Shown: positions 12,119-59,822, counted from the stretch's first letter. The stretch is 64,000 nucleotides of DNA from Acidobacteriota bacterium (GCA_965222655.1 CBDCUP010000003.1:103932-167931), one strand, 5' to 3'. The notes: generated by a model from the letters alone, not told the origin. A program made the numbers and translations.

Positions 12119-12222
12119 CGAGATTGTGCTGTTGTCCGCTCTCTCCTGCCTGCGTCGTCCTCGACGGCCGGAACTTGGCCCCATATTGCAGACGATTCAA
12201 GCCGTGCGCGGCTCTGTTGGAT
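12119..12222 (-). repeat. Intergenic repeat family copy A (ATTGTGCTGTTG...GCGGCTCTGTTGG core), carrying a 30-nt insertion
   Basis: Alignable by eye to copies at 16575-16665, 32786-32865 and 59746-59822. The shared blocks are attgtgctgttg, ggaacttg, atattgcagacga, tcaag and gcggctctgttgg. Confidence 0.6.
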
Positions 12223-13159
12223 CGGCACTGGCATGTCTCTCGTCGTGCCTCTGCAGAGCCTCAAGGACCCGATCGGTCAGGATCTGGACGTATCTCGCCG
12301 TATCCTGATCCGGAGTGAAGGTGGCTGAGCGCACCATGCCGCTGGAGATCAATCCGCGCTCGAGGAGCAGCCGCTTCTCCATATACAAATACAACTCCAG
12401 ATTCTGGAGACTGAACACGATGTGGGGAAGAACATCCGAGAAGATGTCAAGGGCGGTCTTGACATCGCCCGCCTTGGCGAGTGAGAAGACCTCCTGAAGG
12501 AGTTCTGCCATCCCCAGTCCCGGCATTGAGCCGCAGGCGCCGGACAGGATCCCCTCCACCAGATAGAGGCCACCCCAACCTTCAAGTACCTCGACCCCTC
12601 CCTCGGTTTCCTCCTGGATCTGTCGCAGCTTTGGAGCCATGAGTGGCTCCTCCAGTTTGAGGTAGCGAAACTGTGGATACTCCCGATGCAGCCGCCCAGC
12701 AAATGACGGGCTCAGTGTCGCGCCGGTAGGGTTGAAATCCTGAATGAGCACAGGCAGGGAAGTCGCTTCCAGGAGGGTTGCCAGATAGCGAAAAATATCC
12801 TCGTCCGGGAGTGCGAAGAGACGGGGCACAGCCACCGAGATAGCTCCAGCACCCAACTCCTCATTCCTTTTCGCGATCTCGGCCGCCAACTTGGCCGAAT
12901 AATGATTGGACTGTGCGACGACGCGGAGCCGCCCGTCTGAGGCCTCGACTGCGGCTTCCACTAGAGCATACCGTTCGTCCAGGCTCAGCTTGTAGAACTC
13001 ACTTGCGTAGGCAGGCAGACAAACGGCAGGGAGTTGCTTGGCGACGGAGAACTTGACCAGGCGACGCAGAGAGTCCAGGTCCAGTTCCTCCCCGGCATCA
13101 AATGGTGCTACCAGAACGGGAACAATTCCTCGAATGTTCAGCCTTTCCTCACCTGTCAT
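12197..13159 (-). CDS. Dihydrodipicolinate synthase family aldolase/lyase (candidate N-acetylneuraminate lyase or 2-keto-3-deoxy-sugar-acid aldolase)
   Basis: DHDPS/NanA-family fold signatures over about 300 aa. The last roughly 10 codons are contributed by the repeat element, so the C-terminus is uncertain. Context is sialidases and sugar-acid dehydratases. Confidence 0.6.
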   Translation of the reverse strand: MTGEERLNIRGIVPVLVAPFDAGEELDLDSLRRLVKFSVAKQLPAVCLPAYASEFYKLSLDERYALVEAAVEASDGRLRVVAQSNHYSAKLAAEIAKRNEELGAGAISVAVPRLFALPDEDIFRYLATLLEATSLPVLIQDFNPTGATLSPSFAGRLHREYPQFRYLKLEEPLMAPKLRQIQEETEGGVEVLEGWGGLYLVEGILSGACGSMPGLGMAELLQEVFSLAKAGDVKTALDIFSDVLPHIVFSLQNLELYLYMEKRLLLERGLISSGMVRSATFTPDQDTARYVQILTDRVLEALQRHDERHASADPTEPRTA

Positions 13160-13325
13160 CTCATCTCTGCGATTCCAGACGCACGTAGCAGCGACTCTTC
13201 AAGTAGTCGCAACCATAGCAGTTCAAGGCATCCAGGACATCCAAATTGGAAGATCGCGAACAAAAGCATGCCAACTCCGAAATCCCGTGTCGCTCATGGA
13301 AAGAGGATGCTATTCTCTAGGGAAA

Positions 13326-16574: not shown

Positions 16575-16665
16575 GGAGGTAGATTGTGCTGTTGACCGGT
16601 CGCTCCTCGGAACTTGTGCTCATATTGCAGACGAGTCAAGTCGCTTGCGGCTCTGTTGGACTGCG
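16575..16665 (-). repeat. Intergenic repeat family copy B; contains perfect SD (AAGGAGG 16573-16579) and a GTG-initiated 33-codon ORF (16586..16687) on the + strand
   Basis: Sequence aaggaggtagattGTGctgttgaccggtcgctcctcggaacttg...gcggctctgttgg. The translation VLLTGRSSELVLILQTSQVACGSVGLRWLGTAH resembles the translations of the other copies. Confidence 0.6.
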
Positions 16666-16679
16666 CTGGCTAGGAACTG

Positions 16680-16707
16680 CTCACTGATCACTGCTTACTG
16701 CTCACTA
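16680..16707. repeat. Heptamer tandem repeat (CTCACTG ATCACTG CTTACTG CTCACTA), the reverse complement of a CAGTGAG array
   Basis: Direct reading. The same heptamer array in the opposite orientation occurs at 32684-32711. Both lie next to copies of the roughly 90-nt repeat. Confidence 0.7.
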
Positions 16708-16715
16708 TTCAAGTT

Positions 16716-17690
16716 TCAGATCACGGCGCTTTGGAACCGCTCGAGCTCTTTCTTTTCCCACTCGGATAAACGGCCAGCATATTCGTGAGCCTGGTTTACG
16801 AAGTCAACCCCAGCCATACGCTTCCATCCCTGCATCAGCTGCTGGAACACCGGTCCCGGCTTACCGTCTCCCACTAGCTGGCCCTCGAAGGAGCGGGCGT
16901 GTACCAGAGAGTAGGTTGTGGCGGTGCACAGGATCTCGTCGGCCTGGAGCGCCTCGTAGCGTCCCAGGTTGGCTTCCCGCGTGGGAATCCCCAATTCCCG
17001 GGCCACATCTAGCGTGGCACCCCGCGAGACCCCGAGCAAGATGTTCCGTCCCTCGGGACTGATCAGGACACCGTCCTTGACCAGGAACACGTTCCAGCCG
17101 GGACCTTCTGCCAGGAACCCGTCCGGGTCGAGAAGAATCGGCCACTTGTCTGCTCCCATCCGGGCTCCCTGCAGCTGGGCCAGCTGGTAGTGGAGGCGGC
17201 TGCGAGTCTTGGCCTTCGGATCCACTATATGGGCCGGTACTGCCTGCTGCGGGACGATGACCAGCTCGACTCCGGGGTCGTAGTTGGGGGCGAACTGGCC
17301 CATGTGGGTAATGAGAGGCCAGCAATTGATAGAGACCGTCGGCCTGACCCCCTGAGGAAAGACGGTGCGGTATAGGGACAATGGTCCCCTGGAGACATTG
17401 TGCATGATCAGCCAGTCCACGTCACCCGCCTCGGTGGGGGTATTCCGCTCCAAGATCTGGTGGGTGAGCTCCTCCATCTCCTCCAGCGAGATTCCCGATT
17501 CGATCTCCAGCAGACGGAGAGAGCCGTAGAGGCGATCGAGATGATGGCGGAGCCGGAAGGGCTTTCTCTGGAAGGTTCGGGTCATCTCAAAAGCCATATC
17601 TCCAAACATCGAAGACGAGTCGAAGATGGAAACCCGTGCTTCGGACTCCTGCACGTACTCACCATTGAAGTAGACGGTTCTTCCAGACAT
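16716..17690 (-). CDS. Class IV (branched-chain/D-amino-acid) aminotransferase
   Basis: 324 aa of PLP fold-type IV; the stretches MSGRTVYFNGEYV...EARVSIFD and ...ILLGVSRG...ELGIP match the ilvE/dat family. Confidence 0.7.
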   Translation of the reverse strand: MSGRTVYFNGEYVQESEARVSIFDSSSMFGDMAFEMTRTFQRKPFRLRHHLDRLYGSLRLLEIESGISLEEMEELTHQILERNTPTEAGDVDWLIMHNVSRGPLSLYRTVFPQGVRPTVSINCWPLITHMGQFAPNYDPGVELVIVPQQAVPAHIVDPKAKTRSRLHYQLAQLQGARMGADKWPILLDPDGFLAEGPGWNVFLVKDGVLISPEGRNILLGVSRGATLDVARELGIPTREANLGRYEALQADEILCTATTYSLVHARSFEGQLVGDGKPGPVFQQLMQGWKRMAGVDFVNQAHEYAGRLSEWEKKELERFQSAVI

Positions 17691-19141: not shown

Positions 19142-22100
19142 CTAGAAGATGTACTTCAGAGCGAACTGCATGCTGCGCCCATCGGCGGCACCGGTTATCC
19201 GCCCGAAGGTGGAAGAAGTCAAGGCGGCACCGCCAAAACCCGCAGGGTTTCTCAGCACGGCATGATTCAAGACATTGAACATCTCCCAACGGAACTGGAG
19301 ACGGTGCGACTCTTTGAAGTTGAAGTCCTTGGTCAGTCCGAAGTCGAGCCAGAAAGCACTGGGCCCACGTTCGGAGAAGAGTCCAACATCACCGAATGAT
19401 CCGTTCGTCTCAGCCTGCCCACTGGCGGTACACCCCCCGCCTGGCGTGGGGAAGCAGAAAGCGGCTGGGTTGAGCCACGCCAATTTGTCCGGCCCAGTCA
19501 ACTGAACGTTCGCGCCGGTCCTGTTGGGCCGTTTTCCAAAGCCCAATCCATCGCCGCGGGTATCGAATCCGCTGATGACGTTGATGGGATAGGCACTCCG
19601 CCAACCCATGATTCCCGACAGATTCCACCCGTTCGTCAGGAAGCGCGCGGCCGAGTCTGATGCGCCGCCAGGAAGCGTATATATCCAGTTTCCCATAAAG
19701 CGACGGCGTGTATCTGAGGTCTTGGGACCGTAGGAGCCAGCAATGTTGCTGAAATCCTGTGTAAACCGGTCACCGGTACCAAAGCCCGCATCGACGGAAT
19801 GGTAGGTGTGTGCCTTTGCCAACACGAAGCTGGTGAGGAAGGTGAGGTCATCTCTTCGCCCCCTCAAACTCAGGTGCATGGAATGGTAATCGGTTCGGCC
19901 ATCACTGAGGCGCATCAGAATCGGGCCGAAATCGGGTCTTCCACGCTGCCCGGTCGCGGGATCGATCAGGTTGGGGAAAAAGTTGGTGAGTAGCTTGTTT
20001 CCCGCGCTGCCCACATAAGAGGCCGTGGCGCCCAGCCAGGGCGTCATCTGACGTTCCAGGCTCATATTCCAGTGAGAGGCGTATTCATCAGCCCGGTCGC
20101 GCTCGGCGGGCGAAGGAGTGGAGGGGAGCTCCAGTATCGATGCCGGGATCTGCGACAGGTCTCCACTCTTCAAACCGTCGATGACCGCTTCTTGAAATTC
20201 AAAGGGGAAGGGAAACCGAATCGGTTGGAAAGCGGCCGGAATATCGACCGGAGCGAACTGTGCGAAAGACGGAAACGTGGGGTCTGGCAAGAAAGCCATG
20301 TCGAAGTAATAGAAAGGCTGCGGAGGGGTGTAAGTCACTGCTCCGCCAAGCCGCAAGACCGTCGTCCCTTCGTCGTCCAGATCAATCACCATACCGAGAC
20401 GGGGGGCGAAATTGTTCTTGTCTGGGTCAAATATGGGTGTCTCCCGATTCGGGATGAAAGCCCCAAATATATCAGAGCCGGCGATATTCCAGGGTCCCAC
20501 GAATCCCGTGTAATACTCGTAGCGCAGTCCCAGGTTGAGCTGGACGCGATCGCTCACCCGCCAGTCGTCATTCACGTACCAACCCGTCTGCCAGTGTTCG
20601 AATCCGTCGAACCCATCGGGAAAGCCGAACCAGATTTGCAGATACAGCGGATCTCTCTCGAAGAGCAGATCGTCCACACTGGCGTAGCGAACGATCGGGT
20701 TCTCGGCGATGATCCGCTTGGAGTCCATTTTTCGGGCCTCGAAGCCGAATTTCAGATGGTGACGGTCCCGAACCCAGGAGAAGTTATCGGCGAGCGTATA
20801 GGTTTTCGTCTTGAAGTTGATGATGCACTGCCCGTCGATATTGGTCAATCCCGCGCTGCGAGCCGAACCTCCTCCGGCGGGAAACGAGCCACGCAGAGCG
20901 CCCTGCAGACGGGTCAGCTGGTTGCTGTTGATGCCGAAACGGAATTCGTTGAGGACTCTGGGTGAGAGGGTGTAATTGTGCTGAACTGCGAGATTTCTGA
21001 AGCGGGTCGGGAACTGACGGGTATGACCCTCAAACTCCGTGAAATTCGGGGTGATGAAATCCTGGTTGTTGAAGCTGTAGCGTGCCTGGAAGTGCTGCGT
21101 GTCGGTGAGCTCGACATCGCCTCTCCAGAGATAAGTCTTCTCGTCGTTGTTGGCCGCAGCGTTGCGCGCGTGAAAGCAGACTCGGGGATCGCTGGTGGGC
21201 GAGCAGTTTGCCGGGGTCAATTGCCGGTACAGGTCCGCGAGCATGGGATTGGGAGTGGCGTGTCTGATTCTTCCTATTTCAGGATCCACCAGGGTTGCAC
21301 TGTCAATACCAAGGTTGTTTGCAATCACCTCGTCTGTCAAGCGATTCCCGGAAACCGATCGGCCGCGATCGAGCTTTGCATTCTCGATGTTGAAAAAGAA
21401 AAAGGCCCGATCCTTCACAACGGGGCCGCCGATGTTTCCACCATATTGATCGTGCTTCAGGTCGGGCCGGGGCACTCCATTGGCGTTGCTGAAGAAGTTA
21501 TTGGCGTTGAACCTGTCCCTGCGAAAGAAATAGAAGGCGGTCCCGTGGAAGTCGTTGGTGCCCGACTTGGTGCTGATATTGATGACGGCACCGGTGGCGC
21601 GACCATACTCAGCCGAAAAGGAACTGCCGGTTGTCTTGAGCTCGGAAATGGCCTCAATGCTTATGGTGTTGATGACGGCTCCATTGCCGCCGGTCCCGGC
21701 GGCTTGGTCGCCGGCCGCGTTGTTTTCTCCGAAGGACATGTCAACGCCATCGAGCAGCCAGTTGTTGCCGTATCCGGGAGCACCGTAAAACTCGACGCCG
21801 CCCCGCTGGCCGGACAGACTTCCGGTTCCGCTTCCGGATCCAGGTTCCGCGTTGGAAGCGATCACTCCGGGTTGTAGATTGATCATGTCGAAGAAACTGC
21901 GGCCGTTCAGGGGCAGCTCCTTGGTCGTCTTTTCGTCCACGACAATCCCAAGCTGCGGATTGGATCGGTTAATCAGCGGTGTGGTCGCAACCACCTCCAC
22001 TTCCTCCGTGACCGCTCCGACCTCCAGCTGAAAGTCGATTCGGGGCCGGGTGCCTGATTCCAGGATGATTGTTCCACTGACGGCCTTCCGAAAACCCGGA

Positions 22101-22360
22101 ATCTCCACGGTCACGACGTAATCGCCGAGAGGCAACAGTGGAAATTCGTAGAACCCCCCATTGCCCGTGACGGTGGCGTTGATCTTGTTGGTCCCGACGT
22201 TGGTTGCGTTTACATCCGCTCCGGGGATGACGCCCCCGCTCTCATCGGTGACGCTTCCGAAGATCGCTGCTCCGCCTAGTTGGGCCCCCAAGCTCGTGAA
22301 GAGTAGAGGCGAAATCAATACCGCTATCAACAGCAAAGACCTACAATTCTTGTAATTCAT
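19142..22360 (-). CDS. TonB-dependent receptor-like outer-membrane protein with N-terminal carboxypeptidase-regulatory-like domain (Acidobacteria type)
   Basis: 1072 aa. Signal peptide MNYKNCRSLLLIAVLISPLLF. CarboxypepD_reg-like region is AAIFGSVTDESGGVIPGADVNATN...GFYEF..LPLGDYVVTVE, followed by a plug region (ELPLNGRSF) and a long beta-barrel. The C-terminal YIF is a porin-like terminal aromatic. GGGAGA lies upstream of the ATG at 22360. Confidence 0.75.
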   Translation of the reverse strand: MNYKNCRSLLLIAVLISPLLFTSLGAQLGGAAIFGSVTDESGGVIPGADVNATNVGTNKINATVTGNGGFYEFPLLPLGDYVVTVEIPGFRKAVSGTIILESGTRPRIDFQLEVGAVTEEVEVVATTPLINRSNPQLGIVVDEKTTKELPLNGRSFFDMINLQPGVIASNAEPGSGSGTGSLSGQRGGVEFYGAPGYGNNWLLDGVDMSFGENNAAGDQAAGTGGNGAVINTISIEAISELKTTGSSFSAEYGRATGAVINISTKSGTNDFHGTAFYFFRRDRFNANNFFSNANGVPRPDLKHDQYGGNIGGPVVKDRAFFFFNIENAKLDRGRSVSGNRLTDEVIANNLGIDSATLVDPEIGRIRHATPNPMLADLYRQLTPANCSPTSDPRVCFHARNAAANNDEKTYLWRGDVELTDTQHFQARYSFNNQDFITPNFTEFEGHTRQFPTRFRNLAVQHNYTLSPRVLNEFRFGINSNQLTRLQGALRGSFPAGGGSARSAGLTNIDGQCIINFKTKTYTLADNFSWVRDRHHLKFGFEARKMDSKRIIAENPIVRYASVDDLLFERDPLYLQIWFGFPDGFDGFEHWQTGWYVNDDWRVSDRVQLNLGLRYEYYTGFVGPWNIAGSDIFGAFIPNRETPIFDPDKNNFAPRLGMVIDLDDEGTTVLRLGGAVTYTPPQPFYYFDMAFLPDPTFPSFAQFAPVDIPAAFQPIRFPFPFEFQEAVIDGLKSGDLSQIPASILELPSTPSPAERDRADEYASHWNMSLERQMTPWLGATASYVGSAGNKLLTNFFPNLIDPATGQRGRPDFGPILMRLSDGRTDYHSMHLSLRGRRDDLTFLTSFVLAKAHTYHSVDAGFGTGDRFTQDFSNIAGSYGPKTSDTRRRFMGNWIYTLPGGASDSAARFLTNGWNLSGIMGWRSAYPINVISGFDTRGDGLGFGKRPNRTGANVQLTGPDKLAWLNPAAFCFPTPGGGCTASGQAETNGSFGDVGLFSERGPSAFWLDFGLTKDFNFKESHRLQFRWEMFNVLNHAVLRNPAGFGGAALTSSTFGRITGAADGRSMQFALKYIF

Positions 22361-22510
22361 AATTGATCTCCCAGTTTGGATACTGCCCTCGTTACAGGTT
22401 GGCGTTTCTAAGTGATGCCCGCCGGTTCTGCCGGTTCTGTAAGAGTCACATGCTGATTCTTTCATAGGCATTCTACAAATAAATTTCGGGACAGTTTACA
22501 ACGACACGCC

Positions 22511-22552
22511 GAGAAAAGCAAAGCAAAAACACGAGAAAAGCAAAGCAAAAAC
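22511..22552. repeat. 21-bp tandem direct repeat x2 (gagaaaagcaaagcaaaaaca) in the AT-rich region upstream of the TonB-like gene
   Basis: Direct reading: ...gccgagaaaagcaaagcaaaaacacgagaaaagcaaagcaaaaacatt... Confidence 0.7.
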
Positions 22553-23039
22553 ATTATTTAGGAGAATTTTGTAGGAATATGTACCCGTTCCAGTTCGATT
22601 AAAGACGTACAGCGAAGTATTCGGGACGGTCACCATTACAATCAATTACCCAGTTTCTGCAAGCGGCGGGCCAAACAGGTTCCAGCAATTTAAACTACTG
22701 ATTTAACACGGCTTATAACTCTGTTCAGAAAACGCTAGATCCAAGATATTGGATCAGCCAATTGGGACTGAACCGACATAAGAGTTAGCGTTTTCAACAA
22801 GTTATCTAAGAGTCCAAGGCCGATCCAAAAAACCGATTATCTTCGGGAAAATCCCAAGAAACTTGAGTTCCATAAGAGTCGCAGGTCGCTGAGTAAGAGA
22901 TCTATTGATGCAAGAGTAAGGAGTGTACCGTTCTTTCTGTAATTTCCCGTTAAGAGGGAATTTCTCGGGATACCGAGGATTGGGTTGACGAGGAACCTGG
23001 CGCGGCTCAGGCGGAAGGAGGCTGTAGGCCGAGTGCAGC

Positions 23040-24821: not shown

Positions 24822-26162
24822 CTATCGACTTTGAGAGGGTGACTTGCTGTTGTTTTCCACAATAGGCTTTCGACTTTTCAGGGCACGTTTCGCGGCCCTT
24901 AGCCGTGCCTGTTCTTTTTCCGAATAGGTCTTGAGCAGCTGGAATTGGCGAAGGTGTTCAACGGCTTTTTCGGCCTGGCCGGTCTGCTGGTAGAGTTGGC
25001 CGAGAAGATAGTGCGCCTGACTGTGGTTCGGCTGCCGACTCAGGGCCTCTAAAAAGTGTTTCTGAGCTTCCTCTAACTGATTGATCTCTTTAAACGTTTG
25101 TCCCAACTCGAGATGAAGCCGAAGGGCAGTCCCGTCAATCCCGAGTCCCTGGCGTAGCCACCCGAGGGCCTCCTGATGTCGACCCACCCGTCTGGCGGCT
25201 TGCCCCAGAGCCGCCAGGACGTCCACATTGTCAGCTTGCAGTTGATGGGCGTGCTCGAGTATCCGTACTGCCTGTTCCGCTCGCCCTGCCTGGGTGTAAG
25301 CTTGCCCCAAATAATAGTAGGCCGACCAGTTCTTCGGCTCCTCAGCGATCACCTCCTTAAAAGCCTTTTCAGCCTCACCAAATCGTAGCTGGCGAGTATG
25401 GAGCAAGCCCAGAAGAAGCCGGGTCGACGCCGAGACAGGCAGAGATGACAGGAGTTTTCCAGCTTTATCGTACTTGCCGAACTTGATCAAGAGATTGACG
25501 CCCTCCATCTTTTCCTCTGGCTTCAAAGTCAGCTTGTTTAACAAAGCCGAGGCCTGTTCATCCAAATCGAGGCGAAGAAGTTGTCTGAGAAGTTGCAGGG
25601 CGGTCGGGCCGTCCAACTGTGCGAAGGGCAAGCGAGTCAGTTGCTCGAAGGATTTCTCCAGGTTCCCCCGCGCTGATTCCAGTCGGGAATGCAAGATAAT
25701 CAAGCGGGGGTTTTTCGGCTCCAATCTCTCAGCGGAAGTCAGGTGTTGTTCGGCGGCCGCGAAGTCTTTCTGCAGAACGGTCTGCTCTGCCAGCGCTTCA
25801 TGTGCCGGCACAAAGCCGGGGTATTTGGAGAGGGCTTGATTCCAGGCCTGCCTGGCCGACTGCGGACGAGACTTGGCCTGTAGCGACTTCCCCCACGTCA
25901 CCAGACTCCAGGCGTGAAGATACCTCAACTCCTCGGAGTCCGGCTTCAATCGAACAGCCCCTTCGTACTCCAACACGGCGTCCGAAATTCGACCCTCCAT
26001 GAAAGCCCGTTTGGCAGCTTCCAGATGACTCAAAATGGCTTTCGTCGAGTCCTGGGCAATCGAGTAGATTTGGAGCAGGAGGAGCAAAGTTAGTAACAAG
26101 GAGCTGAATCGTACAATCCAATTCCAACGCACGTGTTTAGCATATTGGTCGAAGTTGCCCAT
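24822..26162 (-). CDS. TPR-repeat protein with N-terminal membrane anchor/signal
   Basis: Multiple 34-residue TPR-like repeats (W-LG-Y-----A---F---L) and a hydrophobic N-terminus LLLTLLLLLQIY. Confidence 0.65.
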   Translation of the reverse strand: MGNFDQYAKHVRWNWIVRFSSLLLTLLLLLQIYSIAQDSTKAILSHLEAAKRAFMEGRISDAVLEYEGAVRLKPDSEELRYLHAWSLVTWGKSLQAKSRPQSARQAWNQALSKYPGFVPAHEALAEQTVLQKDFAAAEQHLTSAERLEPKNPRLIILHSRLESARGNLEKSFEQLTRLPFAQLDGPTALQLLRQLLRLDLDEQASALLNKLTLKPEEKMEGVNLLIKFGKYDKAGKLLSSLPVSASTRLLLGLLHTRQLRFGEAEKAFKEVIAEEPKNWSAYYYLGQAYTQAGRAEQAVRILEHAHQLQADNVDVLAALGQAARRVGRHQEALGWLRQGLGIDGTALRLHLELGQTFKEINQLEEAQKHFLEALSRQPNHSQAHYLLGQLYQQTGQAEKAVEHLRQFQLLKTYSEKEQARLRAAKRALKSRKPIVENNSKSPSQSR

Positions 26163-26181: not shown

Positions 26182-26407
26182 CTACGCCGAAGGCGTTATT
26201 GCGGGTAGCCCAGGGTTAGCGATGCGAAGCGAGCTACCCTGGGTCAAGATCGGTCAACAAAATGCCTTACCCCAACGGGGTTACTGCCGACCGGAAACGT
26301 GTTGGCAATAACGCTTTCAGCGTAGAAAAGACGGGACGACTTAAACCCAGGGTAGCTCGCTTCGCATCGCCAACCCTGGGCTACCCGCAATAACGCCTTT
26401 GGCGTAG
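26182..26407. repeat. Large nested inverted-repeat element (two 63-bp arms, 2 mismatches, 100-bp spacer)
   Basis: Arm A 26182-26244 is ctacgccgaaggcgttattgcgggtagcccagggttagcgatgcgaagcgagctaccctgggt. Arm B 26345-26407 is its reverse complement, acccagggtagctcgcttcgcatcgccaaccctgggctacccgcaataacgcctttggcgtag. Each arm is itself an imperfect hairpin (gcccagggttagc / gctaccctgggt). The spacer contains a partial third copy, ggcaataacgctttcagcgtag. Confidence 0.75.
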
Positions 26408-26454: not shown

Positions 26455-28176
26455 TTAGCGAATCGTTCTAAGATCTTTTCCCTCTTCCAGAAGAACACGG
26501 CGGTTAGCCGCAACATCCTTGAATTCCTGACGCTGGCCCGAGGGCCAGATAACCTCCAGACAGTCTACGATTGATCGATCCCCCAGCCCGAAATGAAACA
26601 TTCGTTGACTGTCAGACAAATAACTTGATCCTGCGTGCAGCTCTTGAGAGTGACTGGTTTCTCCCAACGTTGCTGTGACTCGCGCTCCGATGCCGTCTCG
26701 ATTCGAAGCGAGGCCTCTCAGATAAACCTGGAGGAAATTGGATCTGCCCGGAGCGTCATTGCGCAGCAAGTCGACGCGATCGTCCAGGTTGACGACTACG
26801 ATATCCAGGTCGCCATCGCGATCCCAGTCCAACCAGGCTGCGCCTCGTGACGACTTGATGATCCCCAGCCCCTCCCCCAGCGACTCCCCTACTTCAACAA
26901 ACCTGCCGTCCCCTCGGTTCTGGAACAACTGATTCGGTTGTCGATACTCAGTGCCCAGCTTGAAGCGATCGACCTCGGGATAGATGTGACCGTTTGCGAC
27001 GAAGATATCGGGTCGAAAATCGTTGTTGAAATCGGCCAGAAGCGCCCCGAAGCCCAAATAGCGAAATGTGACTTGGGCAACCTGCGCTGAGAACGTCGCG
27101 TCCGCAAAGTATGTTTTTCTATTCTGGTACAGCACATGGTAATCGTTCGAAAAGTTGGTCGAGTAGAGATCCAGCAAGCCATCGCCGTCGTAGTCCCCGA
27201 CGTCGACGCCCATGTTGGCCTGTTCCCGGCCGTCCTGATTGTAGGCCAGACCCATCAGGAGCGAGATCTCGGTAAAGGTGCCGTCTCCGTTGTTTCGCCA
27301 GAGGAAGTTCGGATTGCTGTCATTGGCGACAAACACATCGAGGTCTCCGTCGAGATCGACATCGGTCCAAAGCGGCTGAAAGCCGTAAGACCTTTTACTC
27401 GCCGAAACACCTGACTGATCCGAGACGTCTTCGAATGTCCCGTCGCCGTTGTTACGGAAAAGCCGGTCCTGTGCGCCCGGTAGACCTCTGGGACCGCAGG
27501 CAACGGCCACGCCGGCGTAGGAGCAGTACTGTGGATCACCGGATGATTTCTCGAAGTCGAACTCCAGATAGTTGGCCAGGTAAAGATCCAGATGTCCGTC
27601 CTTGTCGTAATCGCCGAAGGCTGCACCGGTGCTCCACCCAGGGTCGGCAACCGACCCGGTCACTCCAACCTCGGAGAATGTTCCGCTTCCCTGGTTACGG
27701 TAGAGGAAATTGGGACCGTAGTTTGTCACGTAGAGATCGGTGTCTCCGTCGTTGTCGTAGTCTGCGGTGACGCAACCCATGCCCCAGGCGCTGTCCCGGA
27801 GTCCGGCTGGAGCGGTCGCGTCAGAGAATGTTCCGTCGCGGTTGTTTCGGTAGAGTCGGTCACTGGGCCCCTTCTTCCTGTTCCAGGAGTGACGATCGGT
27901 GCCGTTTGCGAAAAACAGATCGGGCCATCCGTCTCCATCGAAGTCCAGCACGCAAACACCACCCGTCATAGTTTCCACCAGGAAGTCCTTTTCTGGCGTC
28001 CCCGCACTGACGATCAGGTCCACACCGGCGCTCTGAGTGACATCTTTGAAGTGCCAATAGTGCTGGGCAATTCCGAGATGGCTGTTGGTCGTAAAGAGTT
28101 GTAAGAGAAGGATTCCCGCAGTGTACGAGCGCCCCCTGGATCTCGTCGCAGGCGGATAGTTCCTTTGACACGACAC
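26455..28176 (-). CDS. ASPIC/UnbV-domain FG-GAP repeat protein (CRTAC1-like), secreted
   Basis: Repeated FG-GAP/calcium-binding D-x-D-x-D-G motifs (DFDGDGWPDLF, DYDNDGDTDLY, DYDKDGHLDLY, DYDGDGLLDLY, DWDRDGDLDIV) followed by a UnbV-ASPIC C-terminal region. It is paralogous to 44260..46116. Confidence 0.8.
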   Translation of the reverse strand: MSCQRNYPPATRSRGRSYTAGILLLQLFTTNSHLGIAQHYWHFKDVTQSAGVDLIVSAGTPEKDFLVETMTGGVCVLDFDGDGWPDLFFANGTDRHSWNRKKGPSDRLYRNNRDGTFSDATAPAGLRDSAWGMGCVTADYDNDGDTDLYVTNYGPNFLYRNQGSGTFSEVGVTGSVADPGWSTGAAFGDYDKDGHLDLYLANYLEFDFEKSSGDPQYCSYAGVAVACGPRGLPGAQDRLFRNNGDGTFEDVSDQSGVSASKRSYGFQPLWTDVDLDGDLDVFVANDSNPNFLWRNNGDGTFTEISLLMGLAYNQDGREQANMGVDVGDYDGDGLLDLYSTNFSNDYHVLYQNRKTYFADATFSAQVAQVTFRYLGFGALLADFNNDFRPDIFVANGHIYPEVDRFKLGTEYRQPNQLFQNRGDGRFVEVGESLGEGLGIIKSSRGAAWLDWDRDGDLDIVVVNLDDRVDLLRNDAPGRSNFLQVYLRGLASNRDGIGARVTATLGETSHSQELHAGSSYLSDSQRMFHFGLGDRSIVDCLEVIWPSGQRQEFKDVAANRRVLLEEGKDLRTIR

Positions 28177-32674: not shown

Positions 32675-32683
32675 GATTCTCCT

Positions 32684-39254: not shown

Positions 39255-39256
39255 CT

Positions 39257-40693: not shown

Positions 40694-40775
40694 CGTGGCG
40701 GTGGTCTCCAGGCCGCCGTATTCTTTGTTCCGAGCCTATGGCTCGACGCACGGCGGCCTGGAGACCACCGCCACG
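40694..40775. repeat. Long hairpin repeat (25-bp perfect stem cgtggcggtggtctccaggccgccg / cggcggcctggagaccaccgccacg, 32-nt loop), exactly filling the gap between convergent genes
   Basis: Direct reading. It begins 1 nt after the DUF1501 stop and ends 8 nt before the stop of the minus-strand sialidase gene. A second, more eroded copy lies at 44139-44201. Confidence 0.7.
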
Positions 40776-40782
40776 ACCCCGT

Positions 40783-42072: not shown

Positions 42073-42331
42073 GACTCAGCCTCCTGTGATTGTTTCTGGA
42101 AGTGGTTCTGGACATCGCTTGAAGGATCCTTCCAAGTAGTAGGCTCTTCTGGGGCCTAAGTCAACAGGCCGGACGACGATACGGCCCTTATTTCGAGAGG
42201 AGACTGATCCGTTCGAACGAGGGGGGATACAAATCTTGCCTCGTCGGCGCAGTGGGAGTACATTGGTCAATCATTATCAGGCAGTCTTTCTGTCAAGTCT
42301 TTTTCTACCCAACCAAAGGAGGGAACCAATC

Positions 42332-44089
42332 ATGTCTTCCAACCGAAGGAATTTCTTGAAGACCGTGGCTGCGGCAGGCGGAACCGCTGCTGCTGCTGGC
42401 ACACTTTCCGCATCCACAGGCCCAGGGGCTGTCTCCAGCGCCGAGTCTCACGGCAGTAAAGAAAAACCCCCGTTTCGTTTGATCTGGGAGGGGGAGTGGA
42501 ACGATGTGCCCTGCTCCGACTATCCACTGACCCCGGAAAGATGGGCCAAAGAAGCCCTGGCGCCCCTGGCCAACACCCACGTGGACGCTTTGGCCTACAA
42601 CGTCTGCAGCAGCGACGGCTATGTCGCCCAGCTGGAGCACGGGGAATTGCTGCTCGACAACGTCGAGCAGTTCGAAGATGCCTGGTATTGGAGATACCGG
42701 GAAAACACCAAGGGGCTGATCAAGGCAGGCGCCAACCCTCCCGACATGGCCGTCAAGTATGGACAGAAATACGGGATGAAGATCTTCGCGGTCATCCGGA
42801 TGAACGATCCCCACGACCAGGTCTACGCCTTCAGGCACGAGGTAAGTAATTTCAAGCTAAACCACCCTGAGTATTTGCTGGGAAACCCGCACTGGGAAGT
42901 AGGTGACAAGGCTCAAAAGGAATACGCGCCGGATACCATGGAATCCTTCACCTGGGGCCTGTTTGACTACTCTCACAAGGCGGTGCGGGATCACAAGCTG
43001 GCCATCATCAATGAGTTCGCCACTCGCTGGGATAACGATGGAGTCATGCTGGATTTCGAGCGGGATCCCATGTACTTCTGGCCTCCCCAGGGAGGTGGGG
43101 CTAAGCCCGAGAACCAGGAGAAGATGACCGATCTGATCCGATCAATCAGAGCGACGCTGGACAAAGTTCAGGCTCAACGCGGGAAAAAGCAGTTACTGAT
43201 GGTGCGGGGAGTTGCCAACATCCAGTTGTGTCAGGAGCGTGGATTGGATATCCCCACCTGGGTCAAGGAAGGCCTGGTGCAAGTAATCATTCCAGGAGCG
43301 GGCTACGCACCCTTCACGTTGAACCTGAAGCCCTGGCTGGAGCTGGTGGAAGGTAAGGAGTGTTGGATCTATCCTTCGAACAACCATTGGAAACATACCG
43401 AGGTCACCAGGGCCTGGGCGCTCCAGATGCTCGACGAAGGAGCCCATGGGCTCTACCTCTTCAACTGGGGCCATCTGATATTCGGTTACAGGGCGGCCGA
43501 GTCCCCCTTGGTTCCCGTCGGTTCCAACTGGCGCGGGAGCGCCTATTCGGTCTGGTACGATGAGGCCCCTCCCGACTTCTACACCACTCTGCACGAGATC
43601 GGAGATATTCGAGCCGTGCAGTTCAAGAACAAGCGGTACGTCCTGGATTCGATCCCGCATGAGGTGATGAAGGATCGGCTGCGGGGCGGCAAGATAGGTA
43701 GCCGGCTGTATCGAGGAATCGACGATGTCGTGCTACCCGTGGAGCTCTCAGTCGGCCGGCATGAGGTCCCATTCCGGATCTCTGACGCTCTGCAATCGGC
43801 TCACGAGTACGGATTCGATCCCAAGGCCACACTCACGATGATGATCGTGAATCACACTCATCCTGATCGCTTCACGGTAACCTTGAACGATACGCTTCTG
43901 AACGATGACACCCGCTCGAGCCGGGATGTCTACATCATGAACAACTTCTCCAGGGTGCAGTATCCGATTCCGTTAGAGGCGCTGAATCATGGACAGAACA
44001 CGCTGAAGCTCCACATGACCAAGACCAATCCGCAGATGAGGCCCAACCCGGTGCTGCAGAACGTGGATATCTCGATCGAGTACGTCTGA
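42332..44089 (+). CDS. Tat-secreted TIM-barrel-like protein of an uncharacterised glycoside-hydrolase-like family (paralog)
   Basis: Tat motif MSSNRRNFLKTVAAAGG. Start at ATG 42332, preceded by AAGGAGGG. It is about 70% identical to 59929..61677 (PPFRLIWEGEWNDVPCSDYPLTPE.WA, IRMND.HDQ, AIINEFATRWDNDGVMLDF.RDPM.FWPPQGG, LYLFNWGHL). Confidence 0.6.
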   Translation: MSSNRRNFLKTVAAAGGTAAAAGTLSASTGPGAVSSAESHGSKEKPPFRLIWEGEWNDVPCSDYPLTPERWAKEALAPLANTHVDALAYNVCSSDGYVAQLEHGELLLDNVEQFEDAWYWRYRENTKGLIKAGANPPDMAVKYGQKYGMKIFAVIRMNDPHDQVYAFRHEVSNFKLNHPEYLLGNPHWEVGDKAQKEYAPDTMESFTWGLFDYSHKAVRDHKLAIINEFATRWDNDGVMLDFERDPMYFWPPQGGGAKPENQEKMTDLIRSIRATLDKVQAQRGKKQLLMVRGVANIQLCQERGLDIPTWVKEGLVQVIIPGAGYAPFTLNLKPWLELVEGKECWIYPSNNHWKHTEVTRAWALQMLDEGAHGLYLFNWGHLIFGYRAAESPLVPVGSNWRGSAYSVWYDEAPPDFYTTLHEIGDIRAVQFKNKRYVLDSIPHEVMKDRLRGGKIGSRLYRGIDDVVLPVELSVGRHEVPFRISDALQSAHEYGFDPKATLTMMIVNHTHPDRFTVTLNDTLLNDDTRSSRDVYIMNNFSRVQYPIPLEALNHGQNTLKLHMTKTNPQMRPNPVLQNVDISIEYV

Positions 44090-44138: not shown

Positions 44139-44201
44139 GGTCTCCAGGCCGAAGTCTTCTGCTCTCGAGCCTTCGGCTCGAAGCACGGCGGCCTGGAGAC
44201 C
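44139..44201. repeat. Second copy of the GGTCTCCAGGCCG...CGGCCTGGAGACC hairpin repeat, between convergent genes
   Basis: tttggtctccaggccgaagtcttctgctctcgagccttcggctcgaagcacggcggcctggagaccaccgctacgac aligns with 40705-40778. The 5' arm is partly eroded. Confidence 0.65.
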
Positions 44202-44259
44202 ACCGCTACGACTTCCTCTGAAGTCTCGGCATGAATGATCCAGGGGCGTTGAAGCATGT

Positions 44260-55500: not shown

Positions 55501-55601
55501 CGGCCTGGGCGAGGGAGTCCTTGGCTTGGCTTGATTGCCCATACTAGAAGGTCCAGAATGGACCCAAGTTGATCGTGTTCGAACCATCCACATTGCCCCA
55601 G

Positions 55602-58214
55602 ATGAACTTGAAGCGTCTGGGACTGGTCACGCTTTCAGGGATTCTCCTTACCTCCTTCACCTCGCAAAACCCCGGGGGAGCGGCTGCCGAAGAGCTTCCA
55701 CCGCCAGCAGAAAGCGGAGCGGATTTCATCCGTGACGTAAAACCCATTTTCGAGAGCCGCTGCTACAGCTGCCACGGCTCCCAACAGCAATTGGGTGGCC
55801 TGCGCCTTAATCGCCGAGAGGACGCCCTTCGAGGAGGTAATTCCGGCCCCTCGATCCATCCGGGAAATAGTGCGGAAAGCAAGTTGATCCACCTGGTAGC
55901 GGGCGTCAAGGAAGGTGAAGTGATGCCCCTGGTAGGAGAGAGGCTCACCCGCCAGGAAGTCGGAATCCTTCGCACCTGGATCGATGATGGTGCGGACTGG
56001 CCGGTGGTCGCGGATCCCCAGAATACAAAGGCTGACACCGATTCTTCCAGCGAAAACAACTCGCACTGGTCCTTCCAACCGATTGAGCGACCTGAAGTTC
56101 CCGCGGTTCGGAAGCGGAACTGGATCAGGAACCCGATCGACGCCTTTATTATGGCCAGGCTGGAGGAGGAAGGAATCGCGCCTTCCGCACAGGCCGATCA
56201 GATCACGCTGATTCGTCGGCTGAGTCTCGACTTGATCGGGCTCCCCCCGACTCCCGAGGACGTCTCGAAGTTCCTGATGGACAACCGCTCGGATGCCTAC
56301 GAGCATCTGGTCGACCGATTCCTAGAATCTGAGCACTACGGTGAGAAGTGGGCCGTGCACTGGCTTGATCTTGCCCGCTATGCCGACAGTGACGGCTACG
56401 AGAAAGATTGGGTCAGGCCCCACGCCTGGCGCTACCGCCATTGGGTCATCGACGCCCTGAATCGAGACATGCCTTTCAACCAGTTCACGATCGAGCAGAT
56501 CGCGGGCGACTTGCTTCCCAACGCTACCACTGCACAAAAGGTAGCCACAGGTTTTCATCGGAACACGCTGACCAACCGTGAGGGCGGCGTCGACATCGAA
56601 CAGTTCCGCTTCGAGCAGGTTATCGACCGAGCCAACACCGTGGGAACGGTCTGGCTGGGACTGACCGTAGGCTGCGCACAGTGTCACGATCACAAATACG
56701 ACCCGATTTCCCAGAAAGACTACTATCGCCTCTTCGCCTTCTTCGACGGGGACGAGGAGGTCAACATCGAAGCCCAGCTCCCCGGTGAGATGGGGCCCTA
56801 TTTGCAAGCTCTTCCTGGATATCTCGAAAGGCGCCAGGCCTTGTTGGAAGAGTACGGAGCTCCCGCACTTCAACCCGCCTGGGAAAAGAGGATGCTGGAG
56901 ACGGCGGCCAATCCGGGTAAGTGGACCGACTGGGACGAGGCTTATGACGCTTTGGAGAAGACCCTGGATAACGGCAACAAGATTCTGAAAACCGACCCGC
57001 CCAGACGCACGCGGAAAGAAGGAACGGCGCTAGAGGATCATTTCGCAAGAAACTACAACCGGGTGCTGAGCAAGGAGCGCCAGGAGGAGCTCAAGTTCAA
57101 AGAGCTGTACGAAAAGCTTGTTGAAATGCGGGAATCGTTCCCGGCTTTGAGTCAGGCGCAGACGATTGCCACGAGCCAGAGCCCGATCGAAACGCATGTC
57201 CATCTCCGGGGAGACTATCAAGCGAAAGGCATCCAGGTTCAACCAGGAACCCCCGAGTTCTTGAATTCAGTGCCCTCTGATCCCAAGCCCAACCGACTCA
57301 CGCTGGCTCGCTGGATCACCTCTGACGAGAACCCCCTGACCGCCAGAGTGGCCGTGAACCGCCTCTGGCAGGAACTGTTCGGCCAGGGGCTCGTAAGGAC
57401 TTCCGAAGACTTCGGAACACAGGGGCAGAGACCTTCTCATCCGAAGCTCCTGGACTGGCTGGCGACGGAGTTCGTGAGCCGCGACTGGAGCATCAAGGCG
57501 ATGATCAAGACCATCGTAGTGTCAGCCGCCTACCGGCAGTCCTCCCAGGAGAGGCCCTCGCTGGAGTCTGGTGAACAGGAAAATTCGCTGATCGCCCGTC
57601 AATCCCGTCTGCGGCTGCCCGCTGAGTTGATCCGAGACGCGGCGCTGTCAGCAAGTGGCCTCTTGAACCCATCCATCGGGGGAAAGAGTGTAAGGCCCCC
57701 TCAACCGAAGGAGGTTGTCGACGTGGGCTTTGGCAATTCTGTGAAATGGGAAGAGAGTCGAGGCGCTGGTCGGTACCGCCGCGGACTTTACATTCATTTC
57801 CAGCGGACGGTTCCGTATCCGTTCTTGATGAATTTCGATGCTTCCGAAAAGAACATCACCTCCTGCCGGAGGAACCGCTCGAACACGCCCCTACAGGCTC
57901 TAAACCTGCTGAATGATCCAGTATTCCTGGAAGCGGCCCAGGCACTTGCTGCCCGCACACTGCGGGAGGTCCCGGGCAGTTTTGATAATCGCCTGGGGCA
58001 CGCATTTCGGCTCTGCCTGGCCCGCGACCCCAGATCGAGCGAGCGCACGAGGCTGACCGAGTACTTTCGACAGCAGCAGCAGATGTTGGATTCGGAAACG
58101 GCCCAGGTGCTGTTCCCACTCGATCTCGACGGCGTCGATCGGATTCAAGCAGCGGCCTGGGTGGGTCTCAGCAGTGTCCTGTTGAACCTGGACGAGTTCG
58201 TCAGCCGGGAGTAG
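55602..58214 (+). CDS. PSCyt1 (CxxCH cytochrome-c-like) plus DUF1549 plus DUF1553 domain protein, secreted
   Basis: Start at ATG 55602 (MNLKRLGLVTLSGILLTSF). The heme motif CYSCHG lies within the PSCyt1 block FIRDVKPIFESRCYSCHGSQQQLGGLRL. DUF1549/DUF1553 blocks are as in 36966..39254 (WLDLARYADSDGYEKDWVRPHAWRYRHWVIDA, CAQCHDHKYDP). Confidence 0.85.
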   Translation: MNLKRLGLVTLSGILLTSFTSQNPGGAAAEELPPPAESGADFIRDVKPIFESRCYSCHGSQQQLGGLRLNRREDALRGGNSGPSIHPGNSAESKLIHLVAGVKEGEVMPLVGERLTRQEVGILRTWIDDGADWPVVADPQNTKADTDSSSENNSHWSFQPIERPEVPAVRKRNWIRNPIDAFIMARLEEEGIAPSAQADQITLIRRLSLDLIGLPPTPEDVSKFLMDNRSDAYEHLVDRFLESEHYGEKWAVHWLDLARYADSDGYEKDWVRPHAWRYRHWVIDALNRDMPFNQFTIEQIAGDLLPNATTAQKVATGFHRNTLTNREGGVDIEQFRFEQVIDRANTVGTVWLGLTVGCAQCHDHKYDPISQKDYYRLFAFFDGDEEVNIEAQLPGEMGPYLQALPGYLERRQALLEEYGAPALQPAWEKRMLETAANPGKWTDWDEAYDALEKTLDNGNKILKTDPPRRTRKEGTALEDHFARNYNRVLSKERQEELKFKELYEKLVEMRESFPALSQAQTIATSQSPIETHVHLRGDYQAKGIQVQPGTPEFLNSVPSDPKPNRLTLARWITSDENPLTARVAVNRLWQELFGQGLVRTSEDFGTQGQRPSHPKLLDWLATEFVSRDWSIKAMIKTIVVSAAYRQSSQERPSLESGEQENSLIARQSRLRLPAELIRDAALSASGLLNPSIGGKSVRPPQPKEVVDVGFGNSVKWEESRGAGRYRRGLYIHFQRTVPYPFLMNFDASEKNITSCRRNRSNTPLQALNLLNDPVFLEAAQALAARTLREVPGSFDNRLGHAFRLCLARDPRSSERTRLTEYFRQQQQMLDSETAQVLFPLDLDGVDRIQAAAWVGLSSVLLNLDEFVSRE

Positions 58215-58218
58215 AAAG

Positions 58219-59655
58219 ATGGATCTGAGAACATTCAAACTCTCTCAAACCCGTCGTGATTTTCTCAGCAGATGTGCCGGCGGAATCGGGACTGTTGCCC
58301 TGGCGCATCTGATGGCGTTGGAGGGGCGTACCGCTACGAGTCGGTTGACCGGGACCAATCCTCTGGCTCCCAAGTCTCCTCACTTCGCCCCCACCGCCAA
58401 GAACATGATCTTCCTTTTCATGGCGGGTGCTCCCAGCCAGCTCGACCTGTTCGATCCCAAACCGGAGCTAGTGAAGTGGCACGGAAAGCCGCTTCCCGGC
58501 TCCATGACGAAGGATCTAAAACTGGCATTCATCAAACCGTCGGCAAAGATCTTGGCGAGCGCTCGGCAGTTCAAGAAATATGGTGAGTGCGGTATGGAGT
58601 TTTCCGACTACCTGCCTCACACGGCGTCCAAGGCCGATGACATCTGTCTGATTCGTTCCATGCACACCGAGGCATTCAACCACCATCCGGGTCAGATGCT
58701 GTTGACGAGCGGTACGACCCAATTCGGGCGACCCACCGTGGGGTCCTGGGCGGTGTACGGACTGGGCAGCGAAAACCAGGACCTGCCCGGCTTCGTCGTC
58801 CTCAGCTCGGGTCGAGGGACCAGCGGAGGCTCCAACAATTGGTCGAGCGGTTTTCTCCCCTCACTGTACCAGGGAGTCCCTTTTCGAAGCAAAGGAGCCC
58901 CGATCCTCTATTTGCCCAACCCCCCGGGAGTCGGTCCGGAGATGCAGCGGGCCCGGCTGGACGCCCTTCGCGACCTCAACCAGGACGAGTATCTGGAAAC
59001 GGGAGATCGCGAGATCCTCTCTCGAATCGCATCCTACGAACTGGCCTATCGGATGCAGATGTCGGCCCCAGATTTGCTCGATTTCTCCGACGAACCCAAA
59101 CATATTCTGGACCTCTACGGTGTCAACCAAGAGCCTACCGGGCCCTACGCAACCAATTGTTTGCTGGCGAGGCGGATGGTCGAACGGGGGGTTCGCTTCG
59201 TCATGCTGGCCCATGCAAGCTGGGACGATCACGATAAGATCGACGAAGGCCTGAAGAAGAACTGTGAGATCACCGATCAGCCCATAGCTGCGCTCTTGCA
59301 GGACCTGAAGCAGCGCGGGCTATTAGACACCACCTTGGTTGTCTGGGGCGGCGAATTCGGCCGCACGCCCCTGTCCCAGGCTGGCCGTGCCGACCAGGCG
59401 CCGGGACGCGATCACCATCCAGATTGTTTCAGCATGTGGTTAGCCGGCGGAGGAATCCGAGGCGGCCAGACCATCGGCAAAACGGACGAACTCGGTTTGA
59501 ACGTGGTTGAGGACAAGATCCACATTCACGACCTACAGGCCACTATCCTCAAGTGTCTGGGCTTCGACCACACAAAGCTGACCTACCACCACATGGGACG
59601 AGACTTTCGCCTCACAGATGTCGGAGGGAAGGTCGTTGAAAAACTGCTGGTGTAG
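58219..59655 (+). CDS. DUF1501 domain protein (sulfatase-like), Tat-secreted
   Basis: Tat motif QTRRDFLSRCAGG. Roughly 75% identical to 39257..40693. It starts 4 nt after the DUF1553 stop. Confidence 0.85.
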   Translation: MDLRTFKLSQTRRDFLSRCAGGIGTVALAHLMALEGRTATSRLTGTNPLAPKSPHFAPTAKNMIFLFMAGAPSQLDLFDPKPELVKWHGKPLPGSMTKDLKLAFIKPSAKILASARQFKKYGECGMEFSDYLPHTASKADDICLIRSMHTEAFNHHPGQMLLTSGTTQFGRPTVGSWAVYGLGSENQDLPGFVVLSSGRGTSGGSNNWSSGFLPSLYQGVPFRSKGAPILYLPNPPGVGPEMQRARLDALRDLNQDEYLETGDREILSRIASYELAYRMQMSAPDLLDFSDEPKHILDLYGVNQEPTGPYATNCLLARRMVERGVRFVMLAHASWDDHDKIDEGLKKNCEITDQPIAALLQDLKQRGLLDTTLVVWGGEFGRTPLSQAGRADQAPGRDHHPDCFSMWLAGGGIRGGQTIGKTDELGLNVVEDKIHIHDLQATILKCLGFDHTKLTYHHMGRDFRLTDVGGKVVEKLLV

Positions 59656-59745
59656 CCCTTTTTGCAGGCTTCTAAGCTGACTTCATTTGGTTTCAGATTA
59701 CAGGTTAAAGGTTCCCGTTTGCCGAAAAACATGAAACGAAATCCG

Positions 59746-59822
59746 ACAGAGCCGCGAGCGACTTGACTCGTCAGCAACATGAGGCCAATTTCCGAGGAGC
59801 GACCGGTCAGCAGCACAATCTA
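59746..59822 (+). repeat. Intergenic repeat family copy D
   Basis: gacagagccgcgagcgacttgactcgtcagcaacatgaggccaatttccgaggagcgaccggtcagcagcacaatct. Its reverse strand encodes MLLTGRSSEIGLMLLTSQVARGSVGF (track ORF 59583..59816). Confidence 0.6.

Follow-up and report, generated by a model that had tools for sequence, protein, structure and literature searches.

What is the short sequence that recurs between unrelated genes of an uncultured acidobacterium, and what might it do there? We followed up a stretch of 64,000 nucleotides from Acidobacteriota bacterium (GCA_965222655.1 CBDCUP010000003.1:103932-167931; the whole of it is called the window here), in which a first-pass annotation had noticed copies of an intergenic element that it thought could be a small-protein gene, a small RNA, or a DNA repeat resembling repetitive extragenic palindromes (REP) or MITEs (miniature inverted-repeat transposable elements). 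The first two options fail the tests that had been named along with them (a preserved reading frame for the protein, compensatory base pairs for the RNA), and the DNA repeat comes closest, although not as a plain REP or MITE. The element, whose core is 76-77 nt long, is a conserved, non-coding, unstructured, orientation-biased and non-palindromic module of a mosaic built like the bacterial interspersed mosaic elements (BIMEs) of Escherichia coli.

Throughout, the orientation ACAGAGCCGC...CAGCACAATCT is called forward. Sequence inspection and a profile search both found the four copies where they had been described, as follows:

12121-12217, minus strand: core of copy A, the GCAC variant of subtype S1, 97 nt including an insert
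12148-12168, minus strand: 21-nt hairpin insert GCCGTCGAGGACGACGCAGGC inside copy A, missing from the L039 orthologue
16581-16656, minus strand: core of copy B, subtype S2, 76 nt
32786-32862, plus strand: core of copy C, subtype S1, 77 nt
59746-59821, plus strand: core of copy D, subtype S2, 76 nt, flanked by a DUF1501 gene and a co-directional gene for a 582-aa protein

These four copies are confirmed as real and far above chance. Allowing up to one mismatch, ACAGAGCCGC has 13 matches in the window against 5.3 expected, and CARCAGCACAATCT, with up to two mismatches, has 6 against 0.63; none of 100 shuffles reached 13 or 6, respectively. A profile search of the 64-kb window with its filters off returned no fifth copy. 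Identity between the window cores is 82-91%, slightly higher than the 75-85% given by the annotation, and the extra segment in copy A, put there at 30 nt, is the 21-nt hairpin listed above. Three copies do have convergent genes on both sides, but "always intergenic" does not hold for copy A, which is overlapped by the end of an open reading frame (ORF) of the dihydrodipicolinate synthase (DHDPS) family (12197-13159, minus strand). This ORF extends 21 nt into the core, and its stop codon is the TGA of the core's conserved CTTGA.

The family extends well beyond the window but not far beyond its host lineage. An exact-pattern scan with 21 specified bases, covering one genome per species, returned 41 stretches, of which 35 were clear homologues and 6 came from unrelated phyla, about the chance number expected for 21 specified bases. 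All 35 homologues belong to five species-level Acidobacteriota metagenome-assembled genomes (MAGs; CBDCMS, CBDCLS, CBDCOR, JAKZYH, and CAUZIZ/UBA6911), at ~9-10 exact-pattern copies per roughly 9-Mb MAG; the window itself is syntenic with CBDCMS at ~90% nucleotide identity. A much larger metagenome collection yielded only 23 stretches, and those confirmed as copies by the profile were from related contigs. Pattern and profile searches of all the fetched DNA (given by L numbers below) brought the family to 56 distinct copies, while collections of plasmids and phages contained no match. The family is confined to a narrow clade of uncultured Acidobacteriota. A search for literature on acidobacterial intergenic repeats or MITEs found nothing on it, and it appears undescribed, although interspersed mosaic repeats themselves are already a known kind.

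Within the core, two conserved blocks enclose a variable middle of ~30 nt. Block 1 reads (C)AACAGAGCCGCGAnCGACTTGA and block 2 reads CCGAGGAG(A/C)GA..CCGG(A/T)C(A/G)(A/G)CAGCACAATCT; CAACAG opens both of them, forming direct repeats 63-64 bp apart in most copies. Two subtypes, S1 (...CGAAC...GAGAGAGCYGGACAAC, 77 nt) and S2 (...CGAGC...GAGCGA-CCGGTCAGC, 76 nt), are present in every genome and differ in length by 1 nt, and the 1-nt indel that had been seen between copies C and B was found again. In the forward direction, TGA is conserved in two frames of the core (52/56 and 46/56 copies). Indels are borne by the middle (+15, +15, +6, and -3 nt), which also receives the 21-nt hairpin at one fixed site. 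This hairpin, a CGTCG-AGGA-CGACG stem-loop with GGA in the loop, occurs at the identical core position (after GTTCCG) in L032 (4169-4275), L067, and L071, and it is polymorphic both ways, being present in copy A and missing from L039 at that locus, and missing from copy C and present in L071 at the other. Gene conversion or a tiny site-specific insertion is a possible route for its gain and loss. Another small insert, consisting of one or two TCTTCCCCACG(G/C)AGTGAC units, breaks block 2 behind GGACAAC in three copies (L049 6216-6290, L005 3437-3508, and L062 6568-6642).

Comparison of orthologous loci showed that intact copies are under purifying selection. At locus A, the core differs from its L039 orthologue at 1 of 77 positions, whereas four-fold degenerate sites are 81-83% identical (~18% divergence; P = 4e-6). 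At locus C, the core and its L071 orthologue differ at 4 of 77 positions against four-fold sites that are 74-76% identical (24-26% divergence; P = 5e-6); at the same locus, the number of heptamer repeats upstream differs, and an AC-rich module next to the core diverges far more than the core does.

The family is also old. Copies are on average as alike between genomes (mean identity 0.815) as within them (0.821), and pairs from one genome never rise above 0.935; given this equality and the lack of near-identical pairs, the family has not undergone a recent burst. All four orthologous loci examined (A, B, C, and D) are occupied, with no empty site among them. The copies have been reshuffled by recombination or gene conversion, not by cut-and-paste transposition, as follows from the hairpin that is polymorphic both ways, from the L065 copy at locus B (an S1/S2 chimera, split by a MITE, that looks partly converted), and from the replacement of the entire composite at locus D. 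In the last case, the downstream protein is 97% identical, yet the whole composite differs between the window and L073 and L074: the window has an S2 core followed by module D1, and the L073 composite consists of TGAAACTTGG and the AC-rich module together with an S1 core and module D2. Elsewhere, one orthologous gene has different subtypes upstream of it in L035 and in L037, and L011 and L030 have identical blocks with a diverged middle and synteny that stops at the element's left edge.

Two true MITEs turned up in the same comparisons and, unlike the core, are polymorphic for presence and absence. At 8846-9034 of the window, CTTAG stands on either side of a ~180-nt element whose terminal inverted repeats are CTTAGGGCTCGCGCAAGAATAACTT... 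and the complement of this sequence; in L039 the orthologous site lacks the element, reading GCACTCAGAC instead, and L019 and L036 contain related copies. The element appears to be a true MITE, and we take its target to be of the YTAR type, as in the IS5 family. Inside the L065 core (4062-4232) lies a ~170-nt TA-flanked element with the inverted-repeat ends TACACAACGTCATAAGTAATTGCGTATAG...GCGCAATTACTTAAGGCGCTGTGTA, and L066, from the same population in another sample, has a different, longer sequence at that insertion point.

Two of the readings considered were a small protein and a structured RNA. A protein of ~25-35 residues would be encoded on the reverse strand, which contains ATTGTG, starting with GTG in S2 or TTG in S1 and including the core peptide ...SSELGLIL.TSQV.RGSVG. 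One reverse frame is indeed stop-free across the core in 54/56 copies, each subtype has its in-frame start codon after a purine-rich run (in copy B, as had been described, AAGGAGG stands 6 nt ahead of a GTG that opens a 33-codon ORF), the indels upstream of block 2 are multiples of three, and a 90-aa ORF has been called over the element in L067. The frame is nevertheless not preserved. Column variability by codon phase (0.43, 0.53, and 0.51) lacks 3-base periodicity, with unrestricted variation in the first and second positions of some codons; start, stop, and length are not conserved, with 17-161 codons and unrelated C-terminal extensions; the subtypes are offset by 1 nt, and their N-termini would differ completely; a second frame of the reverse strand is just as free of stops, which its low A content would predict; and most copies would need transcription antisense to the adjacent gene. 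We therefore rejected the small protein, which is very improbable. Avoidance of stop codons in the reverse frames was likewise set aside as not significant given strand composition and block conservation, a judgment that is partly a matter of reasoning. The purine-rich block before ATTGTG, which had been reported for every copy, is common but gives way in some to CTCGCA, CTACGA, or CTATCT, and it is the complement of a C-rich run after the core. The call in L067 (3967-4239, minus strand), a public gene prediction whose whole length falls on a copy in reverse orientation, is probably spurious, an ORF arising from the stop-free reverse frames.

A structured small RNA, a ribozyme, or a riboswitch-like element would fit the intergenic position, the cross-species conservation, and the presence of several copies; a variable-length hairpin inserted at a fixed site is also seen in many structured RNAs, and an ACTTG/CAAGT helix could form in most copies. 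Yet the whole window at the gathering threshold and two elements at E values of up to 10 gave nothing relevant in Rfam, and the consensus (~99 aligned columns) folds at only -3.9 kcal/mol forward and -3.0 kcal/mol in reverse. Folding z-scores of the four window copies were 0.02, 0.55, -1.21, and 2.31 forward and -0.01, 1.25, -0.43, and 1.24 in reverse, and the means over the 56 copies were -0.26 and +0.26, respectively. The covariation check that had been suggested found compensatory pairs at the level of shuffled controls for two candidate structures (241/500 and 265/500 shuffles reached the observed score). In the ACTTG/CAAGT helix, 86% of cells are paired but the columns vary on one side only, and although ACGTG and CACGT variants both occur, they never do so in one copy. 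With weak folds, z-scores near 0, and no compensatory change in this helix or in those predicted by RNAalifold, a structured RNA was rejected and can hardly be the explanation.

Other known classes fared no better. A plain REP or MITE was rejected because the hallmarks of both are missing: no palindrome or internal inverted repeat was reported in the core, the ends ACAGAGCCGC and CAGCACAATCT lack complementarity, none of the copies is enclosed by a pair of inverted repeats, and no target-site duplication was seen flanking the copies. Consensus scans found neither a sigma-70 promoter nor an intrinsic terminator in or beside any of the four window copies; a sigma-70 or extracytoplasmic function (ECF) sigma factor promoter built on TTGACT or GGAAC was rejected on misfitting spacings and these scans. 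On the reverse strand, TGGCCTCATATTGCA is similar by eye to a sigma-54 promoter, but its GG and GC are 9 nt apart, where 10 are required, and it lies in the variable region. For an integron attC site, GTCCAAC precedes some copies by inspection, but GTCCGAC or AGCCAAC precedes others, no GTTRRRY stands at the other end, the element does not fold, and copies are dispersed on both strands. Domain V of a group II intron (GAGCCG...) was dismissed in the absence of the complementary arm. A Rho utilization site was rejected as well, since C is about equal to G in the core by eye; a low G content is confined to the AC-rich module, and the heptamers are rich in G.

The core is also biased in its orientation relative to genes. 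In rough gene calls, the nearest upstream gene lies on the core's strand for 40/53 copies, and in co-directional intergenic regions, 23 copies are forward and 5 reverse (two-sided P < 0.001 for both counts by the normal approximation to the binomial). Among 51 classified copies, 15 lie between convergent genes and 8 between divergent ones. Within the 64 kb of the window, the minus strand carries A and B and the plus strand C and D, in every case the strand of the upstream gene; thus, the bias follows transcription and not replication. A replication-strand bias such as that of IS200/IS605 was rejected on the same ground. The upstream genes are unrelated and include those for a DHDPS-family protein, a class IV aminotransferase, a pyrroloquinoline quinone (PQQ) dehydrogenase, a DUF1501 protein, GFO/IDH/MocA oxidoreductases, thiamine pyrophosphate (TPP) enzymes, ThiG, and ketol-acid reductoisomerase (KARI), among others. 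As 52 neighboring proteins match 72 Pfam families, a regulon of related genes was rejected; the neighbors are too diverse, and the element is generic.

By architecture, not by homology, the core belongs as a module to a mosaic of the BIME kind. This mosaic is larger than the first-pass annotation had seen, having been glimpsed there through the heptamer arrays alone; those arrays do lie beside two copies, B and C, and are the only ones of their kind in the window. Several short motifs, one of them palindromic, are combined in varied ways in extragenic DNA, namely U0 with heptamers, U2, U3, the core, D1, and D2, in combinations that differ by locus. Upstream of the core, one arrangement has TGAAACTTGAATAG, then (AGTGAGC)n, then GTACCGGAAACAGCTGCAGCC, and the other has the AC-rich module; downstream stands either the palindromic unit D1 or the different module D2. 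In the window, the modules are as follows:

12071-12120, minus strand: module D2 (CGCAGATCCCCAACCCCTCGCTCGCGCTTCAGGCTTCC...), downstream of copy A and common to L004, L026, L039, L041, L055, and L073
16669-16718, minus strand: upstream modules of copy B, namely TGAAACTTGAATAG, then ~4.4 heptamers (16676-16706), then a linker
32685-32711, plus strand: perfect heptamer array, (AGTGAGC) x 3.9, 10 nt past the stop of the PQQ dehydrogenase gene
32712-32785, plus strand: AC-rich, U3-like module between the heptamer array and core C
32863-32900, plus strand: partial left arm of D1 (CCCGTGATTTCAGCCAGAGTTTCC...) after core C, nearly fully conserved in L071, with mismatches only near the 3' end
59823-59882, plus strand: palindromic D1 (...GAATGGGGCCAGCTCGGCTGGGGGC...) after core D

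At the site of the 32685-32711 array, L071 has about two heptamer units. The outer stem of D1 is GAAGTTTC/GAAACTTC, and in its inner stem CCAGC/GCTGG alternates with the compensated CCGGC/GCCGG; unlike the core, it has the stem-loop palindrome that marks REP/BIME units. In the related genomes, it stands alone about as often as beside the core, and the asymmetry of G-U versus A-C pairs in its stem, a possible pointer to the RNA strand, favored neither strand clearly (10 versus 15).

Modules often lie right at the ends of genes. TGA stands in each of the three frames of a heptamer array, and the gene upstream of many composites ends within a module, its stop codon lying in TGAAACTT..., the first heptamer, or CTRAGCTGAAACTT. 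At copy B, for instance, the TGA of TGAAACTTGAATAG is the stop codon of the aminotransferase gene. Repeat-supplied stops were also noted in the window at 16669-16718 and 32675-32711 (the TGA of TGAAACTTGAATAG, the first heptamer, and the TAA or TGA of CTRAGCTGAAACTT), and CTRAGCTGAAACTT is at the same time the right end of the D1 palindrome. Such a pattern would be expected either if stop codons are targeted or if selection favors repeats fused directly to them.

Taken with the bias toward the upstream gene's strand, these features point tentatively to a selected element, reshuffled by recombination, whose action is in cis, on the neighboring gene's sense transcript; we give this statement as a whole slightly less than an even chance, and its classification is much firmer than the mechanism, which we infer. 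On this account, the core, within 3'-untranslated or intercistronic RNA, would serve as an unstructured, single-stranded, sequence-specific docking site for a putative protein or RNA partner. Ribosomes would be halted in every frame before or inside the core by the heptamer arrays and by its own conserved TGAs, leaving it free of them, with an adjacent D1 hairpin as the structured part of the cassette. The likely outcome would be control of the fate of the mRNA 3' end, through stability, processing, or termination. A more specific version is rather unlikely: that core, heptamers, and D1 form a new kind of gene-end cassette, shuffled by recombination, attached to stop codons, and terminating translation in all frames, that offers a long, unstructured RNA platform of conserved sequence to a dedicated RNA-binding factor, by which the fate of numerous unrelated mRNAs would be set. 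A ring-shaped protein could then, for instance, read the (NAG-N4)n heptamers, for which HutP and TRAP offer a comparison.

Several observations weigh against action on the sense transcript. Transcription of the element is assumed from its position. Two copies (L003 at 3155 and L014) are antisense to both large neighbors, and the eight copies in divergent intergenic regions mean that orientation is not absolute; the bias itself could also come from selection against the reverse strand, with its Shine-Dalgarno-like purine run, start codon, and two stop-free frames. Divergence at locus B is about neutral (85% identity with L065 by alignment count and ~87% by eye, compared with 88% at third codon positions). 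The search pattern fixed both end motifs, as invariant, in most of the retrieved copies; in copies found by the profile and in orthologous loci fetched through a neighboring protein, conservation was ~96% for block 1 and ~86% for the final 11 nt of block 2. Among the 52 neighboring proteins scanned, no single Pfam family was prominent. Finally, conserved ends around a free middle also resemble the recognition sites of a recombinase or transposase.

That resemblance is the starting point of the main rival, selfish non-autonomous mobile DNA without host function, which we consider unlikely. Blocks 1 and 2 would be dissimilar recognition ends for a recombinase or transposase acting in trans, with an unconstrained middle and with modules that move or are exchanged as cassettes at junction motifs such as CTRAGCTGAAACTT. 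It would account for conserved ends around a middle that tolerates +15, +15, +6, +21, and -3 nt as well as a nested MITE, for a mosaic with recurring junction motifs, for the replaced composite at locus D in L073 and L074, for the differing subtypes in L035 and L037, and for a synteny break exactly at the element's left edge in L011 versus L030; real MITEs are, moreover, present in these genomes. Mobility of this kind sits poorly, however, with the lack of terminal inverted repeats, target duplications, and (at four loci) empty sites, with the equal identity within and between genomes and the lack of near-identical copies within them, with the low number of exact-pattern copies per MAG, with the absence of a plasmid or phage carrier, and with intact orthologues that are conserved even where paralogues vary. 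Ranked third, and considerably less probable, is a double-stranded DNA site for a host protein (nucleoid-associated, a topoisomerase, or one acting in recombination), a role that has been proposed for parts of E. coli BIMEs. The CAACAG-led blocks, ~63 bp or about six helical turns apart, would be the contacts; their fixed spacing of 63-64 bp in most copies, conservation of sequence without a structural or coding signal, the frequent position between convergent genes, and the association with a palindromic unit, as in BIMEs, all agree with it. Such a site should nonetheless be largely indifferent to direction, yet the bias is 23 to 5; tolerated insertions of 6, 15, and 21 bp shift the helical phase between the blocks; and arrays of stops in three frames fit a role at the RNA level better.

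How does this mosaic compare with repeats already described? To our knowledge, nearly all described families of intergenic repeats are palindromic (REP, ERIC, BOX, and Correia), and most have been treated as structural or selfish DNA. The BIMEs of E. coli combine REP palindromic units with non-palindromic motifs, and they share with the present family an extragenic mosaic in which a palindromic unit (here D1) joins other short motifs in varied combinations, often at gene 3' ends or between convergent genes and next to unrelated neighbors. In contrast, the core is long (77 nt), non-palindromic, often without a palindromic unit, strongly biased in orientation, and low in copy number, and no sequence relationship was seen. 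BOX elements of Streptococcus pneumoniae, built as boxA-boxB-boxC and proposed to affect expression, are likewise modular and intergenic, with a variable number of internal units and co-transcription with neighbors (assumed from position for the core), but BOX folds stably and has recognizable ends, whereas the core does not fold, and the host phyla are unrelated. Enterobacterial repetitive intergenic consensus (ERIC) sequences, or intergenic repeat units (IRU), are imperfect palindromes found in both orientations in enterobacteria; they resemble the family in their length of ~100 nt, cross-species conservation, location in transcribed intergenic regions (transcription being assumed here), and internal insertions at fixed sites, and differ from it in that the core is neither palindromic nor free of orientation bias.

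The heptamers recall the short tandemly repeated repetitive (STRR) sequences of heterocystous cyanobacteria, which are heptanucleotide tandem repeats. Both form arrays of 7-nt units in intergenic DNA whose length varies between relatives; here, however, the unit is AGTGAGC, the arrays lie at stop codons and are tied to the core, and they provide TGA in all frames. MITEs, including the Correia elements of Neisseria, are also small, non-coding, and dispersed among unrelated neighbors, and real ones occur in the same genomes, but the core has no terminal inverted repeats, target duplication, or empty orthologous sites.

The window contains other repeats and paralogues. Paralogous three-gene clusters at 36966-44089 and 55569-61677, with 66-80% DNA identity, each encode a PSCyt/DUF1549/DUF1553 protein, a DUF1501 protein, and a 580-620-aa protein without a Pfam match; the core element occurs only in the second (55569-61677). 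Directly after the stop codon of a DUF1501 paralogue, at 40694-40775, lies a perfect 26-bp inverted repeat (CGTGGCGGTGGTCTCCAGGCCGCCGT, with a 30-nt loop), a third arm of which is found 3.4 kb away at 44185-44210. A related repeat containing GGTCTCCAGGCC occurs in L016 and L040; these repeats make up another family, possibly a terminator-like one. Between the ORFs at 24822-26162 and 26455-28176 (both minus strand), an inverted repeat at 26182-26407, with 63-nt arms that are 97% complementary and 100 nt apart, may be another element with terminal inverted repeats. Lastly, a perfect 22-nt tandem duplication (CGAGAAAAGCAAAGCAAAAACA x 2) at 22510-22553 lies just upstream of the start of a 1109-aa ORF (19142-22471, minus strand).

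Five traits make this family unusual: the core is long and unstructured, it is oriented with transcription, its intact orthologues are several-fold more conserved than four-fold sites, it is fused to arrays that stop translation in all frames, and it can be swapped wholesale between close relatives. Knowledge of the family improves annotation in any case, as gene callers already predict spurious ORFs over it, such as the 90-aa call in L067. If the element proves to be selfish DNA, it would be a mobile module without inverted repeats that spreads by recombination. If instead it acts on the sense transcript, it would represent a lineage-specific post-transcriptional system in poorly known, uncultured Acidobacteriota with large genomes, and it would offer a clean sequence handle toward the binding partner.

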